A stretch of DNA of 64,000 bases from a virus. Location of the stretch: positions 64,001 to 128,000 of the IMG/VR virus record IMGVR_UViG_3300028840_003924, one strand, 5' to 3'. The stretch's first letter is position 1. Every line of letters begins with the position of its first letter. A program made the position numbers and the translations under genes. The notes under the pieces were generated by a model. The model was not told the DNA's origin. It did not search any database and saw nothing but the letters and a program-made list of their open reading frames with translations. Below, piece after piece: positions 11,946 through 64,000 of the stretch.

Positions 11946-14873
11946 CTAATCTTTCCAATCTATCTCTATAGTTACACCTTCGCCTTGCGATTGTATGTCC
12001 ATATTTCCCTCATCTGAATTGAGTAAGTTCGCAAGCATTGACATCGGTGTCATCGTTTCAATTTCAATATCCACTACGTCATTGTTCCGCCTGTCGACAA
12101 ATGAAAGCGTATCACCGTGGATAGTTACAGGCACTTTCGTGAACTGGTGAATCTCAAAACTTACAGCAGTTCCACTGAGACCCCACATTTTCTTCGGAGT
12201 TGAAAGCGTAATCGTAGTACCGTCGATCTCCAGAATCTCGTGATACTTGCCACCAATCAAAACTAGGAAATTCTCCTTGAACTGACTGTTCTCAAGAAGT
12301 GGCCCCAACCAGTTAGCACCATTGGATATGGATAGGCCAGTTTCGTAGTTGGTCGGACTGGTATCTAACGTCAGTCCACGCACGTCTAGGTAACCTACAG
12401 CCTCGTCGATCAGCCGCCTGAAGACCTCTGCGCTCGTCACGCCCATTGATCCGAAAGTCCAACCGGTAATCAGGAAGTTCTCGTCGTCAATGAACTCACG
12501 AATCTCGTATTGGACGCCACCAATGCGAATATAGTCTCCAACGTTCACTTGGTATTTCGTTCTGAAGTCCGTACCACCATCAATCCGGCCTCGTCGACCT
12601 ACCGCTATGCGACCAGTTGTGCTGGGGTCGCCAACAGATACATCCAAATCTGTCTTCAACTGGTAAGTGATGTTCGACCTATCCTTCAAGTCGCCCCAAC
12701 TAGCCAGAATCAAAGAATCGTTAGGCAACGTCTCGTCAATAAGATAAGTGCCCGCCACCACCGAAGGTGCCGTAACCTCAATCTTCCAGCCAGGAGCCAC
12801 GTTGTTGTGACGGAAATCTACGTCCTCGTCAGTGAAGGTGAAAAGATTGTCCTCAGTGATGCTCGTCACCGTCCCATCAAAAAGCTCATTCGATAACCTG
12901 AAAGGGAACGCAGCAGTATTGAGAGGCCAACCAATCGTGTCGGGAACACCCTGCACAATGTCCACAATCATATTTTGAGGATTCGTCACCTTGTACTCGC
13001 CCCCATCTGGACCCGATAGGATTTCCAAAAGATTGTCCGTTGTATCCAAACCAGAAACGGTGACATCAAACGTCACGCCAGGGGAGTAAAGTACAATAGC
13101 GTCATTCAAGCCACTACCGCTGCCTGTGGCAGCGGTAGTGGCGGTGGCGGTGGCGTTGCGGCGTACTGCGACTGAATCTTCGAGTCCATGCTTGATAACC
13201 CTTGTAAAGATGTCCTGACCGTTGGTCAGAACATCTTCTGGTGTTAGTTGCATGAGTATTTCCACTTCTTCTTGTTGCGGGGTTACATTCTCATTAACTC
13301 CTGCTTGATAGGTGAGCGAGTTCACGAACATGTGGAAGGGTTTGTATTCTTCGATTACATTCTCAATTTCCTCAACACGGGCATCTGTGATATTTTCGAT
13401 TTCTACATCGATATTCACCATGCTACTGATACAACAAGAACATTCATCTAAGAAAGCCTTATCCATATCACAAGGATCGGTCGAATCCCTTAATGAACCG
13501 TTATATTCCTCCATATTATAGATGTTTTCGCTGAATGGAAACTCGGTACGGACACGTCCCCAAACGACGAGAGGTTGTGTTGGGTGACGTGTGGGGCAAA
13601 TCACATCGAACATCGTATCCGTCTCTTCGATCAATCTTACATTCCAGTTCTTTGGAGGGTAAGTTACATCGGCTTCATCTCGCTGATCCGCCAGTGGAAG
13701 CGAGCGGATATATGCTTCTATAGTGGGATCGATGATGGGCCCAATCTTATAGACGATTCGCACGATATCACCATCCACCAATGCAATAGGTGTAGGTGCC
13801 GTCTCACCTGTCCAGGTTAAGACGTAAACGGCATCGTCTGCATCGTAGGTGATTTCGCCATAGTCACTGGCCGTTAATGTCGTGTAAGTAGATGAGCCAT
13901 TAGGTCGGAGGTAAAGCTCAAAATCAGAGGTATCGTAAACACTCTTTGCTAGTTCAAATTCGGTTTGATCATCAGTGACGGTGAAGGCTTCCTGCCATGT
14001 AGCCGACGAGGTAACTTGCCAGAATTGGGTAAGATTATTCAATGTGGCCGCTGATTGGGCTAACGCTTCCCTCAACCCCGCCAAGGTACCTTTTCTTTTG
14101 AAGAGCGGAATTGCTCGTTTGATTTGCCGCCGCCATAGTGTGACATCATCGGATCGCAAGCTCAGATTGAATAGGTTCGACAGATACAATATCATTCGCT
14201 CGTGAATGGCGTTTGCGTCCTGTAAGTCGACCATTTGATTTGCAAGGTCTTCGAGAACAACAAAACCATTAGCCAGTGCTGTGTTGAATCTATCCAGAAT
14301 ATCCGGCGTGAGGTCACCAGGAGCTATCTTTAGTTTCAAGTATTCCGGAAGATACCGTTCAAGCAGAGTGGGATACTTATCGGGATCGGTGATATGAGTG
14401 GGAACTGCCGTATTCGAGGCTGTGTCTGACGCCAACTCAAACGTGACGGACTGTCGCATCAAGTCCCCGGCGATAATTGGCGTCCACGACCAACAGAGGA
14501 TATAGTCACCCTCTCTTGCAAACTCCGGTACCCAGGTAATCTCGAAAGTACCTGTTGAAACCTTCGTAGCTATCGCCATATCCGTATCGGTGGATAGCCA
14601 AGCGGGGTCAATATCCGTTCCAAATGTCTTTGCGACAGTCGCTTGGTTGAAGTAACTTGACAGAACCAAGTCGTCGCCCTCATCAACCTCAATGGTCTTG
14701 TCGAGTCGAAGTGTCTTATCTGTAGTGAACTCTCTTGCGAGGAAATAGACGGTAACCTGATCTAACTTGTATGGATCAATCAGATTTCCATCAGCATCTG
14801 TTGTCGTAACTTCCAACAGAATTGTGTCACTGGTTTTCGGCGATTCGTCTATTCTTACTGGTTCTGTTGGCAT
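11946..14873 (-). CDS. Baseplate wedge protein, P2 gpI/T4 gp7-like, extended (975 aa)
   Basis: LYLSNLF...WRRQIKRAIPLFKRKGTLAGL; EEYKPFH; follows the J-like gene. Confidence 0.8.
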   Translation of the reverse strand: MPTEPVRIDESPKTSDTILLEVTTTDADGNLIDPYKLDQVTVYFLAREFTTDKTLRLDKTIEVDEGDDLVLSSYFNQATVAKTFGTDIDPAWLSTDTDMAIATKVSTGTFEITWVPEFAREGDYILCWSWTPIIAGDLMRQSVTFELASDTASNTAVPTHITDPDKYPTLLERYLPEYLKLKIAPGDLTPDILDRFNTALANGFVVLEDLANQMVDLQDANAIHERMILYLSNLFNLSLRSDDVTLWRRQIKRAIPLFKRKGTLAGLREALAQSAATLNNLTQFWQVTSSATWQEAFTVTDDQTEFELAKSVYDTSDFELYLRPNGSSTYTTLTASDYGEITYDADDAVYVLTWTGETAPTPIALVDGDIVRIVYKIGPIIDPTIEAYIRSLPLADQRDEADVTYPPKNWNVRLIEETDTMFDVICPTRHPTQPLVVWGRVRTEFPFSENIYNMEEYNGSLRDSTDPCDMDKAFLDECSCCISSMVNIDVEIENITDARVEEIENVIEEYKPFHMFVNSLTYQAGVNENVTPQQEEVEILMQLTPEDVLTNGQDIFTRVIKHGLEDSVAVRRNATATATTAATGSGSGLNDAIVLYSPGVTFDVTVSGLDTTDNLLEILSGPDGGEYKVTNPQNMIVDIVQGVPDTIGWPLNTAAFPFRLSNELFDGTVTSITEDNLFTFTDEDVDFRHNNVAPGWKIEVTAPSVVAGTYLIDETLPNDSLILASWGDLKDRSNITYQLKTDLDVSVGDPSTTGRIAVGRRGRIDGGTDFRTKYQVNVGDYIRIGGVQYEIREFIDDENFLITGWTFGSMGVTSAEVFRRLIDEAVGYLDVRGLTLDTSPTNYETGLSISNGANWLGPLLENSQFKENFLVLIGGKYHEILEIDGTTITLSTPKKMWGLSGTAVSFEIHQFTKVPVTIHGDTLSFVDRRNNDVVDIEIETMTPMSMLANLLNSDEGNMDIQSQGEGVTIEIDWKD

Positions 14874-27954: not shown

Positions 27955-27966
27955 TTGTGCTATACT
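27955..27966 (+). promoter_or_regulatory. Extended -10 promoter candidate TTGTGCTATACT
   Basis: TGnTATACT in an intergenic gap; identical 12-mer at 34787. Confidence 0.55.
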
Positions 27967-31425: not shown

Positions 31426-32220
31426 ATGTTCAAAGATTGGTTAGTTCAAGAAGAAACGCATAAAAACAACATCATCAAAGTCGATGTCTTCGATTTTGAT
31501 GACACGCTGGTATTCACGCCCAGCGCCAAGAAAGCCAAAGACATCCTACACAAGCATAACGTCAAAGCCGCCATCGAGGGGACGGATATGATCCGTCCCC
31601 TCGATGGCCATTGCTTCTACTACGCCTACCAATCATTGGAGCCGCCTTTGGTTCCAGAACCGTGCCCCTGTTCCATGTTGAACCAAGGTGTCGCACAACA
31701 ATTCTACGCTTCTGCTGGCGATCCTAGGCGAATGACGGTCATTCTTACAGGCCGACCACCACATCTGGAAAAACACATCCGGCGTATCCTGGGAGACTTC
31801 AAGATGGAACCGAATCGTCTGGTCACCGTGCCCGTGACAAGTAGTACATTGCCAAAGAAGATCGAAGTGATTGCCCGGCTGCTCGACGAGTTCCCCAGTA
31901 CCGAAGAGGTGGAGATGTGGGATGATCGGGGTCCGCTGAAAGCCAAGCTCTATAACAAACCTGAAGAGAACCATATTAGTGAGTTCCGCAAGTTCCTCAC
32001 CACCTTCAACAGCTACCGTGGCGAGAAACCTATCAAGTTCAAGATCAATGAGGTACCACCTCGTGATGTCACTGCATCACAACTGTTCCAGCAGTATGCA
32101 ACCCAAGTAGGAAAAGAGCAGAAAGAGCGGAAGGAAAAGGCTAAGGAGAAGAAGAAAAAAGCCAAAGCGAAGAAGGCTGAGACTAAGAAGACCAAACCTA
32201 AGGCTAAGAGCAAGAAGTAA
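31426..32220 (+). CDS. HAD phosphatase, Swiss-Army-Knife RNA-repair-like, with Lys-rich tail
   Basis: VFDFDDTLVFTP, VILTGR, KK, EMWDDR. Confidence 0.8.
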   Translation: MFKDWLVQEETHKNNIIKVDVFDFDDTLVFTPSAKKAKDILHKHNVKAAIEGTDMIRPLDGHCFYYAYQSLEPPLVPEPCPCSMLNQGVAQQFYASAGDPRRMTVILTGRPPHLEKHIRRILGDFKMEPNRLVTVPVTSSTLPKKIEVIARLLDEFPSTEEVEMWDDRGPLKAKLYNKPEENHISEFRKFLTTFNSYRGEKPIKFKINEVPPRDVTASQLFQQYATQVGKEQKERKEKAKEKKKKAKAKKAETKKTKPKAKSKK

Positions 32221-34786: not shown

Positions 34787-34798
34787 TTGTGCTATACT
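34787..34798 (+). promoter_or_regulatory. Extended -10 promoter candidate heading the plus-strand accessory region
   Basis: TTGTGCTATACT, the same 12-mer as at 27955. Confidence 0.55.
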
Positions 34799-58262: not shown

Positions 58263-58856
58263 ATGAAACGTAGACACTTCATACTCTCCAGCGTCGTGAC
58301 AGCCATCGCCACCACCTTCGGCTGGAAGCCGAAGGTGGTGGCTGAAGAACCCGAACAACCTCGCCCTAGAAAGGGCGATATATGGAAATATCCAGAGACT
58401 GGCGATCTGATTGTGGTGGATAAAGTACGTCTCAAACTGGTTTTCTACCACTTCAAAAAACAACCAGACATCAAACGGGCCATGGCACCCTGGCAGTTTC
58501 GTGATACGTATGTATTCGTTAAACGGAAAGGCTCTGAAGATAACCCAAAGGGTCTGCCCGTTGTCCTGTTCGACGAGAAGGGGAAGATCATCAACGGAGA
58601 GGAACTGTTCAAAGACATCAACTGGACTGTCAAGCCGCCATTTTTTCATTCCGCCACTCGTCGGCGGCGTGCTTGGGTTCCCCAATTAACCCCTATGGCT
58701 CAAACTCGCTGCGCCGGGGCTTGTGTTTTCTGGGGTGAGGTCATGATGGAAAACTATTCGTGGGGACAAATCGATGTTGACCCCACGGAACATTCCGTGG
58801 TAGCCTACCGTTACGCAAGCCAAGAAGGTGTGACTAACCACGTCACTATCAACTAA
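58263..58856 (+). CDS. Twin-arginine signal protein, paralog 1
   Basis: MKRRHFILSS + h-region; NPKGLPVVLF; FWGEV. Confidence 0.75.
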   Translation: MKRRHFILSSVVTAIATTFGWKPKVVAEEPEQPRPRKGDIWKYPETGDLIVVDKVRLKLVFYHFKKQPDIKRAMAPWQFRDTYVFVKRKGSEDNPKGLPVVLFDEKGKIINGEELFKDINWTVKPPFFHSATRRRRAWVPQLTPMAQTRCAGACVFWGEVMMENYSWGQIDVDPTEHSVVAYRYASQEGVTNHVTIN

Positions 58857-59797: not shown

Positions 59798-59838
59798 GGG
59801 CACTTTTTTTCTGTTTCTCTGTTTAAGGAGTGGGTGTG

Positions 59839-60036
59839 ATGCCACAAGGCAAGATTAAGAAGTTGATTACGGAAAAGGGATTTGGGTTCATCGAGGCGCA
59901 AGGTGGAGACATCTTCTTCCACCACTCGTCGCTCCAAGGTGTGACCATCGAAGAACTTTGTGAAGGCCAAGAAGTCGAATACGACAAAGGGAGTGGACCG
60001 AAAGGACCACGAGCCGAAAACATCAAGGTGCTGTAG
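59839..60036 (+). CDS. csp: Cold-shock protein
   Basis: KGFGFI (RNP1), IFFHHS (RNP2), GPKGPRAENI; AAGGAG RBS. Confidence 0.93.
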   Translation: MPQGKIKKLITEKGFGFIEAQGGDIFFHHSSLQGVTIEELCEGQEVEYDKGSGPKGPRAENIKVL

Positions 60037-60195: not shown

Positions 60196-60660
60196 ATGAA
60201 ACGTAGAGTTTTTCTCGCAGGGGCAGCAGGGGCAGCCGTCACCACCACCTTGGGCGTCCCGCCCAAGGTGGTGGCTCGTGAAGCTCCCCAAAAGGAACCT
60301 GAAAACCCAGAAGGCTTAGCCGTCATCAAGTTCTCCAAAGACGGCAAGAAAGTCATCAACCTCAAAGAGATCATCGAACATGGAGGAACCCGAGATAACT
60401 TCTTCATGAGTCGAGATGATAAGATCGCTGGGCCAAACGGAATCTTTCTTGAGTGTGCCGTGTGGCTTCGCAAAAAAGATGCCATGGCGGACTGCTGCCG
60501 CCCCTACAATACACCCGGCCTGTATTGGGGTAAGGTAAAGATGCATTACGCTATCGCTGACGATTACGATGTTAGCTTCTATCTCCAAACAACCGAGGAG
60601 TCGCACGCAATCGACTTGCCAAATTTTGACACGGACTTCGAGGTCGACGAGGTTCGGTAG
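60196..60660 (+). CDS. Twin-arginine signal protein, paralog 3
   Basis: MKRRVFLAGAAG; PKVVA; NPEGLAVIKF; YWGKV. Confidence 0.75.
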   Translation: MKRRVFLAGAAGAAVTTTLGVPPKVVAREAPQKEPENPEGLAVIKFSKDGKKVINLKEIIEHGGTRDNFFMSRDDKIAGPNGIFLECAVWLRKKDAMADCCRPYNTPGLYWGKVKMHYAIADDYDVSFYLQTTEESHAIDLPNFDTDFEVDEVR

Positions 60661-60672
60661 TGTTAGGTCGAA

Positions 60673-60707
60673 CACCACCTCCCGCCGCATAGCGGCGGGA
60701 GGTGGTG
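60673..60707. repeat. 16-bp perfect palindrome lacking a U-tract
   Basis: CACCACCTCCCGCCGC-ATA-GCGGCGGGAGGTGGTG. Confidence 0.8.
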
Positions 60708-60717
60708 GGAGGGAACT

Positions 60718-61044
60718 ATGAAATTCAGTATTAGCGTGATGGGCACTGACGAGTTAGCGCCACAACAACTCGGTGCCGAAGACTTGTTCACAGCAGATGC
60801 GGGCGTGTACGCCTCTGAGCAGTACGAGGACTACTATGTGGTAGTCTTTCCCAACTGGAATACAGAAGAGGCTCCGGAGGCCGTGCTCGCTTTGAATATG
60901 GTGGGGCAGGAAGTTAAGGCTTTCGATCCCGGCGAGTTTGGTAACAACGACACCTTTGTAAGGGTCAACGCCGAGGTGAAGGTTGCCATCCAACTCAGCA
61001 AGATTGAACTGCCAGAGATCGAGTTTGAAGGAATCATGGAATGA
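60718..61044 (+). CDS. Hypothetical acidic protein
   Basis: GGAGG RBS; 108 aa. Confidence 0.7.
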   Translation: MKFSISVMGTDELAPQQLGAEDLFTADAGVYASEQYEDYYVVVFPNWNTEEAPEAVLALNMVGQEVKAFDPGEFGNNDTFVRVNAEVKVAIQLSKIELPEIEFEGIME

Positions 61045-61697
61045 GCAATTCACGGATCAGAGAATTAGACCGAAAGAACACGGACCTCCTGAGCGCCCTA
61101 ACCTTCCTCGTTGATGCTATCGAAAGAGAGCCGAAGGATAAGTGCGACTTTCGTCCAACCAAAGACTCTTACAGGTTCATCCCACTCAACATTCATTCCT
61201 TCATGGGAGCGATGGAGACGGTAGTTACCCATATGAAGAAACGTCGTGTCTTCGACAGAGACATCCCGAATCGCCCGCCACGGGGATATCCAACTTTCAT
61301 GGACGCCGGTTGCGGGTGTGGGACGAAGCTCGTTTTAGCAACTTCATTCGGCTTTGAATCTTACGGCTTAGAAATTGATCGCAAGCTGGTGCGCCGGGCG
61401 AAGAGGTTGTTCTCTGCGAATATCTCAGGCGATGACCATCACTTCCTTTCCAACCGTCACGGGCACATGCGATTGCCCCAGGTTATCACCAAGAATGTTC
61501 TCAACTGGGATTATAGTTCCTACGATGTGGTCTTCTTCTACCGCCCGTTTGAGGACCGTGAAAAGGAAGAGACCTTTGAGACGTTGGTCTACAGGCAGTT
61601 GGCGAAGGGAAGCTATGTGATCCCTGTCTATAGAGCACTGAACCCACCCGGTCGTTTCAAGCATCTGATGGGCGATGTCTTCTACAACCCGAAGTAA
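61041..61697 (+). CDS. Class I SAM-dependent methyltransferase, paralog of 45014
   Basis: FMDAGCGCGTKL, GLEID, YDVVFFYRPF, GSYVIP. Confidence 0.8.
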   Translation: MSNSRIRELDRKNTDLLSALTFLVDAIEREPKDKCDFRPTKDSYRFIPLNIHSFMGAMETVVTHMKKRRVFDRDIPNRPPRGYPTFMDAGCGCGTKLVLATSFGFESYGLEIDRKLVRRAKRLFSANISGDDHHFLSNRHGHMRLPQVITKNVLNWDYSSYDVVFFYRPFEDREKEETFETLVYRQLAKGSYVIPVYRALNPPGRFKHLMGDVFYNPK

Positions 61698-61699
61698 TC

Positions 61700-61728
61700 T
61701 TGACTGAAGGCGAGCTAATGATTCTAAT
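61700..61728 (+). promoter_or_regulatory. Sigma70-type promoter candidate
   Basis: TTGACT-N17-TCTAAT in an intergenic gap. Confidence 0.4.
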
Positions 61729-61755
61729 AGGGGAAAACTATGGATAGGTCTTCCG

Positions 61756-62484
61756 ATGCCGCCACCATACATCCTCTATCTCGACAACAAAGAGCAACAG
61801 GATCGCATTCCGACCCTGTACGGGACGATAGAGGCGTTGTGGAGTCATTTGGAGACGGTGAATGAGGGTTACCGCCGCAACTTCGGGAATGCCAACAACG
61901 GCAAAGCATGGATCGTAACGGACGCTTGTGCAAAAGGCACCCAAAAAGTTGACAAGACCGCCGCATATCGGATACTCCAAAAGCAAGGAACGATCAACCT
62001 ATACTGCGAATGTACGAGTTGTGGACTTTTTTATACGGGAAGTGCCCGGAGGGAGGACGTTGGCCGTTTAGTTCCTAAATCCCACAAGATCGACAAGCTC
62101 GTGATGCGGACGAAGAATGTGGAGCAACAATTCCAACGGATGCTCGACCATGAGTCTACCTCAACTTGGGAACCCCATGAAGTCAACCCTGTTCAAGCCC
62201 TTGCTGCTGCCGAGGAACGCATCTTTGGGTTCAACCTTTACCATGCACTTCAAGCAAGTTCGTTGGGGTTAGAGGAGATTGAAGAAAAGGCAGGCTTTGC
62301 TCCTGATACGTTGCTGGCGATGATGAGTGCCATCAAACCACTCAGACCGACAGGTGCCCAGATCGACAAACTAGCCAGGATACTGAAAGTCAAACCCGAA
62401 GAGCTTTGGTACGATGCGGTGGCGGTTTACCTCGATGCGACCAACAGTTGGGACAAGTATATTAAAATGGAGGACACGCCATGA
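61756..62484 (+). CDS. Protein with C-terminal XRE-type HTH
   Basis: LGLEEIEEKAG....L......RPT...IDKLARILKVKPEEL. Confidence 0.65.
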   Translation: MPPPYILYLDNKEQQDRIPTLYGTIEALWSHLETVNEGYRRNFGNANNGKAWIVTDACAKGTQKVDKTAAYRILQKQGTINLYCECTSCGLFYTGSARREDVGRLVPKSHKIDKLVMRTKNVEQQFQRMLDHESTSTWEPHEVNPVQALAAAEERIFGFNLYHALQASSLGLEEIEEKAGFAPDTLLAMMSAIKPLRPTGAQIDKLARILKVKPEELWYDAVAVYLDATNSWDKYIKMEDTP

Positions 62485-63416
62485 GAGTCTTAAGCTTCTC
62501 TGTCGTGATCGGTGGAACCAAGTGTAATGCTGCTTGTCCCTTCTGCGTCTCTCGCATGACGGCACCACCACGCCGGGCGCTGAACCCCAACTGGTTCGCT
62601 TTCAAGAAAGCTGTCCAAGCCGCTCTCGATGCCGGGGCCTGGGGAGTCATGTTTACCGGTAAGGGCGAACCGACCGAGTACCCCGACTTAATAACACAAT
62701 ATCTTCGGATGCTGGGAACGATAGGAATCCATCTGGGGAAGGTTCGCCGCACGATACCGAACACGATCTATTCGTTATTCGGAAAGCCGCAGTTCGATTT
62801 TCTTCCCTTCGCCTTCGCCGATCTGCAAACCAATGGAATCAACATCCCGCAACAGAGAGGTTTATTAAAGAAATGGCATCGACTTGGCCTGAGTACGGTT
62901 TGCATTTCTCTTGCTCACTGGAACGATGCCGAGAATTGGTCCATGATGCGACACCACACCGTTAAGCCGATGAACATCTGGCAGAACGTTGGAATCTTGA
63001 AGGACCTCGGCTATCTGACTCGTTTGAACTTTACTGCGATGCGTCGGGGTGTCGAAACCATTGAAGATGTAGAGATCGTGATAGCCCTGTGCCGCAAGTA
63101 CGGCGTAGACCAACTCACCATTCGAGATGTTGCCACACCGGATGATAAGGATAGTCGCAATCCACAAGTAACGCAGTACGTGAAGGATCATCGAATCAAC
63201 TTGGAACCGGAACTGCGTGAGTACATGAAGGAAGCTGGTTCACCAGCAGTCATGCTTCTTTCGCATGGAGCAACGGTACACTATCACCATGGCATCAGCT
63301 TCTCTGTTAATAACTGCCTTACCACCTCCCAAAACCCTGATGAACTTCGGCAACTCATTTCGTGGCCCGATGGGGCCTTAACGCCCGACTGGAAATACGA
63401 CCTTCGACTTTTATGA
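62481..63416 (+). CDS. Radical SAM protein
   Basis: CNAACPFC (CxxxCxxC), FTGKGEPT, LQTNG. Confidence 0.9.
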   Translation: MRVLSFSVVIGGTKCNAACPFCVSRMTAPPRRALNPNWFAFKKAVQAALDAGAWGVMFTGKGEPTEYPDLITQYLRMLGTIGIHLGKVRRTIPNTIYSLFGKPQFDFLPFAFADLQTNGINIPQQRGLLKKWHRLGLSTVCISLAHWNDAENWSMMRHHTVKPMNIWQNVGILKDLGYLTRLNFTAMRRGVETIEDVEIVIALCRKYGVDQLTIRDVATPDDKDSRNPQVTQYVKDHRINLEPELREYMKEAGSPAVMLLSHGATVHYHHGISFSVNNCLTTSQNPDELRQLISWPDGALTPDWKYDLRLL

Positions 63417-63449
63417 AGATTTGATCACGTTTAGTAACCCTTCCTCCCG

Positions 63450-63838
63450 TACCCTCATTTGCGAAGCAAATTCGGGGGTCGCATTCGCTCCTCCATAATA
63501 AAGCCTATATCCGTAATAAGCCGCATATTCCCCGTAAAAACTGGGGTTGGTGGATTTCCGAGCCTCTGGTATACTCTGTCTTTGTCCTGAGTAAGGCCCG
63601 TGTTCCAAGAGTCCTTCAGGACACCCATACACTCGACCTGTACTAAACCAAAAAAAACCGGTGAGGAGCCGGGAGCACCAGTGTCGTTTGTAGCGGCACG
63701 ACGAGTGTATGCATGGACCCCAAAGTATTATTGCTTTGGGGTCCATCAGTTTGGGTATTTCCCGCCGTTTAATGCCCTGCGGTGGGATTACATGGCCGGT
63801 CCTTTAACGTTAGACGACGTGGAGGTACCGGCCTTTTC
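63450..63838 (+). ncRNA. Candidate structured noncoding RNA (unclassified)
   Basis: At least six consecutive or nested stems, with G-U pairs valid only on the plus strand; last stem followed by TTTT. Confidence 0.55.
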
Positions 63839-64000
63839 TATGCGCCGAAACTGACGTTGACCCAAATCGGTGAAAATGGGATCATATAGTATCGTCAACC
63901 CCAAGGGCATGAGTATTGTCGATATCCTTCTTTGCACCAAACCAACATAAGGATAGAGCCATGGACTTTCTACTCATTGCCGCCGCCGCTGGTGGCTTCC

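Follow-up and report, generated by a model that had tools for sequence, protein, structure and literature searches.

A structured noncoding stretch between two genes of a giant-phage record: an orphan RNA candidate

Giant phages have large accessory regions, and the noncoding part of these has hardly been explored. Does a densely paired intergenic stretch in such a genome represent an RNA in its own right? The question is raised by a gap of 544 nucleotides (nt; positions 63417-63960) between a radical SAM gene and the gene that begins at 63961, in a window of 64,000 nt corresponding to bases 64001-128000 of the 136,132-base-pair (bp) IMG/VR virus record IMGVR_UViG_3300028840_003924 (coordinates are those of this window unless stated otherwise). 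An earlier note on this DNA had put forward positions 63450-63838, ~400 nt, as a candidate novel phage noncoding RNA (ncRNA). The analysis reported here bears out that proposal for the fold, for the lack of an Rfam family and for the lack of a coding signal, but neither for the size nor for the 5' part, since the structured core is smaller, about 275 nt (63581-63855). The core is genuine, its limits are sharp and its structure is statistically exceptional, which makes this noncoding stretch a reasonable candidate for an orphan ncRNA of an uncultivated giant phage. We tentatively favour the view, by no means assured, that it is an RNA-level structured noncoding element of the plus strand, most likely a separate small transcription unit. 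Its value at present is that of a well-delimited, strand-assigned single-sequence prediction that comes with explicit promoter and terminator hypotheses.

Fold, strand and extent of the core

The stability of the core is exceptional. On the plus strand, 63581-63860 folds at -122.2 kcal/mol (z -7.32), none of 200 dinucleotide shuffles being as good, and the centroid is nearly identical to the minimum free energy (MFE) structure. On the minus strand the same stretch folds at -109.3 kcal/mol (z -4.84), with one of 200 shuffles as good. The genome itself provided a second background, in the form of all 280-nt windows of the 136-kb record, taken in 140-nt steps on both strands, of which 967 do not overlap the core. 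None of these 967 reaches the plus-strand energy of the core, whose GC-adjusted residual lies at -4.1 standard deviations (the background minimum being -3.3), and ten are as low as the core on the minus strand. The start of the core window was chosen, whereas the background is a fixed grid, and both grid windows overlapping the core still come to -109.0 and -111.5 kcal/mol. The helices and domains of the gap are as follows.

63417-63580, no strand assigned: spacer, unstructured beyond chance, which contains the imperfect hairpin 63452-63476
63452-62/63466-76: GCGAAGC-capped hairpin, 9 of 11 positions complementary, 36 nt past the radical SAM stop codon
63583-91/63615-23, plus strand: hairpin P1, with 8 perfect bp at 63583-90/63616-23
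63626-63711, plus strand: three-way domain P2, with a 10-bp closing helix 63626-35/63702-11
63713-25/63734-46, plus strand: hairpin P3, 13 bp perfect, 15 MFE pairs including one G-U
63747-63853, plus strand: 3' domain, in which helix P4 encloses P5 and P6 and which carries the plus-strand preference
63760-68/63779-87, plus strand: hairpin P5, 9 bp, two of them G-U pairs
63794-63833, with the tail TTTTCTAT to 63841, plus strand: hairpin P6, long and imperfect, with the GC-rich base GGCCGGU/ACCGGCC and three G-U pairs

Every stem listed in the earlier note is present where that note had placed it. The closing helix of P2 can be extended to arms at 63626-40/63697-711, which are complementary at 13 of 15 positions and enclose an A-rich single strand (A8 at 63650-57) as well as sub-hairpins at 63658-72 and 63681-99. 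P4, which had not been listed, is a long-range helix that pairs 63747-52 and 63754-56 with 63844-46 and 63848-53; seen as a complementarity between 63746-55 and 63845-54 (9 of 10 positions), it can close the last two hairpins. By itself it could be due to chance, since we estimate that about two such 10-mers are expected in the region. P1 gives way to other pairings once 165 nt of upstream sequence are included in the fold, and 63601-07 can, from the sequence, compete for 63616-24.

The dense structure had been thought to span 63450-63838, and folding z-scores against dinucleotide shuffles on both strands had been proposed as a check. These place 63581-63860 far beyond the shuffles, but 63431-63580, on the 5' side, is no more stable than they are (z +0.63 on the plus and -0.67 on the minus strand). 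Within the core, the fold signal is not owed to the perfect hairpin P3 alone, both domains remaining significant without it: the 5' domain, 63581-63712, has z -3.13 on the plus and -3.19 on the minus strand (with -3.40 and -3.03, respectively, for the P2 stretch 63625-63712), and the 3' domain, 63747-63855, has z -5.53 (-50.9 kcal/mol) on the plus and z -2.89 (-35.7 kcal/mol) on the minus strand. The 3' domain is thus 15 kcal/mol more stable on the plus strand. G-U pairs account for 12 of the 86 predicted pairs on the plus strand and for 6 of the 89 on the minus strand. The argument that G-U pairs on the plus strand betray selection at the RNA level therefore stands for 63747-63855, but not for 63581-63712. 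The assignment of the element to the plus strand follows from this bias of the 3' domain, from the U-rich tail that follows P6 on that strand only, and from the plus orientation of the neighbouring genes and of a promoter-like site described below.

Coding potential and the search for relatives

A structured stretch might still be part of a gene, and the open reading frames (ORFs) of the gap were therefore examined with a codon log-odds score whose training set was 73 long ORFs of the record; the comparison was with length-matched spurious out-of-frame ORFs, stop codons being excluded. The ORFs in question, with their lengths in amino acids (aa), are listed here.

63411-63746, minus strand: 111-aa ORF, codon score -0.044, judged not coding
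63600-63854, plus strand: 84-aa ORF with a GTG start, codon score 0.043, judged probably not coding
63455-63628, minus strand: 57-aa ORF overlapping P1 and the unstructured spacer, of ambiguous status

The 111-aa ORF scores at the median for 74 spurious ORFs, and no more than 0.4% of true-gene chunks fall so low; among 95 spurious ORFs, 18% do as well as the 84-aa ORF, and 4% of true chunks are as low as it is. Neither has a Pfam or PHROG match. A phmmer search of 1.84 billion representative proteins with the 111-aa ORF returned only two long repeat proteins, in both of which a segment of 28-34 aa is matched over and over (pairwise E 1e-3 to 2e-5), and which we read as repeat-inflated scores rather than homology. 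The 84-aa ORF retrieved no candidate, itself included, in a search of 5.8 billion proteins, and was for this reason taken not to be a called gene in the source. No match was found when four small ORFs were compared by tblastn with the loci fetched for this study and with the genome itself. Protein-level conservation of the 111-aa ORF, which the earlier note had named among the observations that would speak against its proposal, is thus absent, this ORF having no real homologue and the codon use of spurious ORFs.

Known RNA families fared no better. The 4227 models of Rfam 15, which include GOLLD, ROOL, HEARO, OLE, 6S, RNase P, transfer-messenger RNA (tmRNA), group I and II introns, riboswitches and small ribozymes, gave no hit at gathering score anywhere in the window; under relaxed filters and at E <= 10, nothing but chance matches of 8-14 bits turned up, for thresholds of 36-50. 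ARAGORN found no transfer RNA (tRNA) or tmRNA gene in the window or in the 136-kb record. The Infernal/Rfam scan that had been suggested thus yields no known family, and neither program contradicts the earlier note, which could not match the segment to tRNA, tmRNA, RNase P or intron consensus. The element belongs to no described RNA family.

Relatives outside the known families were sought by sequence and by structure. A blastn search of the gap against its own 136-kb record returned the gap itself, the only other match being that of P3 with its own reverse complement, and a search of 50,697 GenBank phage records returned a single chance match of 41 nt (E 0.6). Comparison by blastn and nhmmer with 89 loci that carry radical SAM homologues gave nothing below E 2.7. 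A covariance model, R1, was made from the predicted structure and this one sequence, which was entered twice. It found only itself in its own record, had no match in 10 giant-phage records of related phages (12-340 kb) and gave, among 118 loci, one 9-bit match at E 0.61 in a first set of 91 and none in 27 more. Three exact-pattern scans, of viral contigs and of genome contigs, were likewise without a match. With no exact hairpin pattern in viral contigs and no second copy in the record, the marks of a dispersed palindromic repeat of the miniature inverted-repeat transposable element (MITE)-like (RPE-like) kind were not found. The stretch is present in two DNA metagenome runs, both marked as its possible sources, with no RNA run listed, which has no bearing on expression; none of the contigs of these two runs could be placed on 61000-64000, which has no bearing on variation.

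Transcription signals and competing explanations

The promoter of the element, the ends of the RNA and the existence of the RNA itself are what we infer from signals at and around its edges, beginning with two promoter-like sites.

63547-63575, plus strand: promoter-like site, TTGGTG (63547-52), a 17-nt spacer and the extended -10 TGgTATACT (63567-75)
63857-63885, plus strand: second promoter-like site, TTGACC, a 17-nt spacer and (TG)GATCAT, 9 of 12 matches

In the upstream site, TGgTATACT is an extended -10 match whose hexamer agrees at five of six positions; it lies 7 nt before the first stem and predicts a start near 63582, at the very edge of P1. The site was not flagged by a sigma-70 scan, because its -35 matches at only three of six positions. 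TGNTATANT occurs eight times in the window against 3.4 expected, a count that none of 100 shuffles reaches. Two more copies of TGCTATACT, at 27958-27966 and 34790-34798 on the plus strand, lie in gaps 5' of plus-strand genes, both ~35-45 nt before a good Shine-Dalgarno sequence and start (the gap at 34790 separates divergent genes), and these two are likely promoters for a sigma-70-type polymerase. The downstream site, 63857-85, is not significant alone, as a scan of 2 kb found three such sites against 1.9 expected. At the other edge of the element, P6 is a hairpin of 40 nt with bulges, followed on the plus strand by TTTTCTAT (six T in eight). It is terminator-like on this strand only, and was not flagged by a simple terminator scan limited to stems free of gaps and loops of 3-8.

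These signals outline how a separate transcription unit might work. The extended -10 promoter-like site 63567-75 would initiate transcription near 63582, and the RNA would fold into P1, the three-way domain P2, the perfect hairpin P3 and the P5/P6 domain, with a 3' end either after P3 (~170 nt) or at P6 and its U-tract (~257 nt). Bacterial small RNAs usually end in a 3' module of the Hfq type, made of a stem-loop, an A/U-rich linker and a terminator hairpin with a U tail. The predicted stem-loop, the linker AUUACAU and the terminator-like hairpin with its U tail would resemble such a module. As to function, our best guess is a stable regulatory or protein-binding RNA that might operate during infection. 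That it represents a new class of RNA, multi-domain, ~170-260 nt long and with its own promoter, located beside an accessory radical SAM/methyltransferase cluster and acting in trans on host or phage machinery, for example by sequestering a protein or in anti-defence, is an extension that we regard as doubtful.

Any such reading has to be set against the unusual hairpin content of this genome. In the 136-kb record there are 32 perfect hairpins whose stems measure 10-19 bp (in most cases 14-19 bp, with a loop of 3-4), where about one is expected. Twelve of them, P3 included, lie outside good ORFs, in gaps, and most of these lack a U-tract; two start 1 nt and 13 nt past the end of the preceding ORF. 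The other 20 fall within ORFs that score well for codon use, and there they code for short linkers, PPPSAAQPQKVV or TTTLGVPPKVVA for instance. About a dozen have the outer arms CCACCACC/GGTGGTGG in common, which is also the commonest 8-mer of the genome (57 occurrences against a mean of 4.5), and their inner arms differ, so that they are not copies of one mobile element. Examples are given here.

58308-58342, 60242-60274, 60673-60707, 31570-31608 and 13110-13142: perfect hairpins in the window
128821-53, 129456-90, 131395-429 and 131839-73 (genome coordinates): further perfect hairpins of the record

The element invites comparison with the intrinsic terminators and 3'-end hairpins of the same genome: P3, with its 13 bp, is perfect like the other hairpins outside good ORFs, and P6 has a GC-rich base and a U-rich tail. 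P3, a possible 3' end or terminator, is best read as one of the genome's usual kind, and part of the 'dense structure' may therefore consist of ordinary terminators. It differs from the lone hairpins in that its 275 nt are occupied by five or six helices, the first of them 165 nt past a stop codon, and in that the helices other than P3 are imperfect and contain G-U pairs, which the perfect palindromes of the genome, a DNA-level feature, do not. What is unusual here is that P3 is preceded by ~130 nt of structured, ORF-poor sequence with a promoter-like site and followed by a plus-biased two-hairpin domain with a U-tract.

Several observations weigh against an independent plus-strand RNA. The element is a single sequence, hence offers no covariation, and homologues were found in 0 of 10 giant-phage records and 0 of 118 loci. 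Around 72 radical SAM loci, none of 358 downstream windows reaches z < -2.5 on the plus strand, and the window downstream of the closest viral radical SAM locus has z -0.2; the element is thus not a conserved companion of the radical SAM family. Hairpins are abundant genome-wide (the 32 perfect ones against about one expected), and the strand assignment is open to several objections: the 5' domain has no strand preference (z -3.13 versus -3.19), a strand difference of 13 kcal/mol over 280 nt is found in 39 of 855 genome windows and so is not rare, and the minus-strand fold is itself unusual (z -4.84, only 10 of 967 windows being as low). The signals at the edges can be questioned too. The -35 TTGGTG matches the consensus at three of six positions, and the sigma-70 consensus may not be that of the host; P6 is followed by just four consecutive U and has an imperfect stem, unlike the clean terminators of the genome. 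Finally, the 57-aa ORF that overlaps P1 has a gene-like codon score of 0.148.

Two of the competing explanations tie the structure to a neighbouring gene. The gap could be an inter-operon spacer, in which P3 and P6 terminate or stabilize the radical SAM transcript, the promoter of the next gene follows, and the extra stems have no dedicated function. Perfect hairpins like P3 do occupy gaps between good ORFs elsewhere (12 of the 32, mostly without a U-tract), and in each of the other most stable windows of the genome one such hairpin predominates. The two flanking genes lie on the plus strand, the promoter-like site 63857-85 comes after P6, and there is no hairpin directly at the radical SAM stop codon, so that P3 or P6 could be the terminator of this gene. 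We nevertheless consider a mere spacer unlikely, since P3 and P6 lie 297 nt and 378 nt past the stop codon, compared with 1 and 13 nt past the preceding ORF for two of the genome's other perfect hairpins, the domains retain z-scores of -3.1 and -5.5 without P3, the helices are imperfect and contain G-U pairs where the other hairpins of the genome are perfect, the stems are separated from the stop codon by a promoter-like site, and the stretch is more stable on the plus strand than any of the 967 other windows. The promoter-like site at 63567-75 could instead launch a cis-acting leader of the 903-aa gene downstream, ~255 nt of structured RNA in which P6 and its U-tract would be an attenuator with regulated read-through, in the manner of the lambda pR'-tR' short transcript, put-type antitermination RNAs or riboswitch leaders. 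The element is on the strand of that gene and directly 5' of it, the order is that of promoter-like site, structured RNA, terminator-like hairpin and gene, the second promoter-like site lacks statistical support (3 against 1.9 expected), and the competition of 63601-07 for 63616-24 offers P1 an alternative pairing. Yet none of the riboswitch and leader families in Rfam matches, we found no clear antiterminator pairing that would replace P6, and viral contigs yielded no relative of the downstream gene in which the conservation of a leader could be checked; we rate this role as quite unlikely.

The remaining two explanations invoke a protein or the DNA itself. Small protein genes are improbable. 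The chief candidate is the 57-aa minus ORF, 63455-63628, which would be convergent with the radical SAM gene, with the hairpin 63452-76 as a shared terminator; this hairpin indeed overlaps the stop codon of the ORF, between the convergent ends, and the score of 0.148 is within the range of true genes, being reached by 5.3% of 245 spurious ORFs, with 25% of true chunks as low. The ORF has, however, neither a homologue nor an entry of its own in the collection of 5.8 billion proteins, no clear Shine-Dalgarno sequence precedes its ATG, and it spans only P1 and the unstructured spacer, leaving P2-P6 unexplained, while the 111-aa and 84-aa ORFs are non-coding by score and without real homologues. 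An element acting as DNA, be it a replication or packaging site, a cluster of protein-binding palindromes or the remains of decayed palindromic mobile elements, would account for the unusual fold of the minus strand (z -4.84) and the lack of strand bias in the 5' domain, in a genome where perfect DNA palindromes are numerous and 20 of the 32 fall inside ORFs. It is highly improbable in view of the strong plus bias that G-U pairs confer on the 3' domain, of the absence of iterons and tandem repeats and of any other copy in the 136-kb record, and of a cumulative GC skew that has no turning point at the element. A search for direct or tandem repeats that would suggest iterons had found none, and a replication origin in particular was rejected on these grounds (no iterons, no skew turning point). 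Also rejected were an intron or split gene, both neighbours being complete, and a retron, a TnpB/IscB guide RNA or a CRISPR-related RNA, the directly adjoining genes encoding a radical SAM protein and a KOW-like repeat protein rather than a reverse transcriptase, TnpB/IscB or a Cas protein.

Known phage RNAs and genomic setting

How does an independent plus-strand RNA, the reading that we prefer, compare with what is known from other phages? Transcriptomics has revealed ncRNAs in jumbo phages, with four described in Pseudomonas phage PA5oct (PMC7318152), and RNA maps have been reported for phiKZ (PMC8244752) and 201phi2-1 (PMC11512511). Like these ncRNAs, the element is intergenic, noncoding and located in a very large phage genome, with a putative promoter and terminator of its own and a length of 170-260 nt. 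Unlike them, it is known from its sequence alone, whereas they are defined by RNA data, and the comparison, made via Rfam, gave no match. GOLLD and ROOL are large ornate RNAs associated with phages (PMC12286853, PMC5737381). The element resembles them in being highly structured, multi-domain and noncoding and in residing in phage or prophage DNA, and the function of GOLLD and ROOL, too, was unknown at their discovery. GOLLD and ROOL measure roughly 600-800 nt, form conserved families and are often found near tRNA genes. By contrast, the element is about 275 nt long and a singleton, has no Rfam match at E <= 10, and comes from a record without a tRNA gene. A different parallel is offered by the '6S' short transcript of lambda pR'-tR' and by put-type leaders, in which a promoter, ~200 nt of untranslated structured RNA and a terminator are found ahead of phage genes. 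The promoter-like site, structured stretch and terminator-like hairpin before the downstream gene recall this arrangement, but the likeness is one of layout, and neither an antiterminator protein nor a two-hairpin motif of the put kind was identified.

Structured phage RNAs such as GOLLD and ROOL have repeatedly proved to be biologically and structurally unusual, and the packaging RNA of phi29 is a further example of an unusual structured phage RNA. If it is a real RNA, the element would add an orphan fold to this group and would constitute a compact target, of ~260 nt, for probing and cryo-electron microscopy (cryo-EM).

The record has a CheckV completeness of 27%, which implies a genome of ~500 kb, and a tailed phage is indicated by a baseplate wedge protein that matches PHROG 219 (E 6e-27) and has 284 relatives in viral contigs at 56-78% identity, several of them on records of 230-340 kb. 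In this phage of an estimated ~500 kb, 136 kb can be read without meeting a tRNA or tmRNA gene. The earlier note had called this gap the largest without a convincing gene; crude codon-based gene calls, too rough for gaps to be ranked, list others of similar size. The genes that flank the element are the following.

62481-63416, plus strand: radical SAM gene, 311 aa, Pfam PF04055 (E 1.8e-8)
63961 to genome position 130672, plus strand: downstream gene, 903 aa, with AAGGA 7 nt before the ATG

The radical SAM protein is complete, aligning to the last C-terminal residues with its two closest homologues (49-50% identical in this alignment). An identical copy is found on a second contig of 339,821 bp, its other relatives are at most 48-49% identical in the search, and in the fetched loci identity is at most 37%. 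A single-protein search of viral contigs with this protein gave no match, and a comparison with NCBIfam gave nothing above cutoffs. It belongs to an unnamed radical SAM family of ~290 aa, in which 327 proteins match at E <= 1e-3 and source labels read mostly 'MoaA'; members at <=37% identity are found in other viral contigs and in metagenome-assembled genomes of Patescibacteria, Planctomycetota and archaea. The gene was not found in five related giant-phage records, which points to a variable part of the genome. On its 5' side lie a weak methyltransferase-like gene and a helix-turn-helix-like gene (61041-61697 and 61756-62484), and among 10 further upstream genes that were scanned eight lack any Pfam family, which speaks neither for nor against a retron, TnpB, IscB or cas partner. 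The 903-aa protein encoded downstream combines a hydrophobic N-terminus with an (EEPPK)x6 repeat and many KOW/SH3-like repeats, the KOW motif (E 4e-4) being below Pfam's cutoff. It has no relative in viral contigs, and two in-frame perfect hairpins are contained in its gene.

Two smaller observations concern the surroundings of the element. An 18-nt direct repeat of 78% identity links 63639-63656, in the A-rich strand of P2, with 63933-63950, just before the next Shine-Dalgarno sequence; as a two-copy match, it may be due to chance. On the plus strand, 3.5 kb 5' of the element, 59830-60036 encodes a cold-shock-domain protein of 68 aa (Pfam CSD, E 4.5e-18), of the RNA chaperone type.

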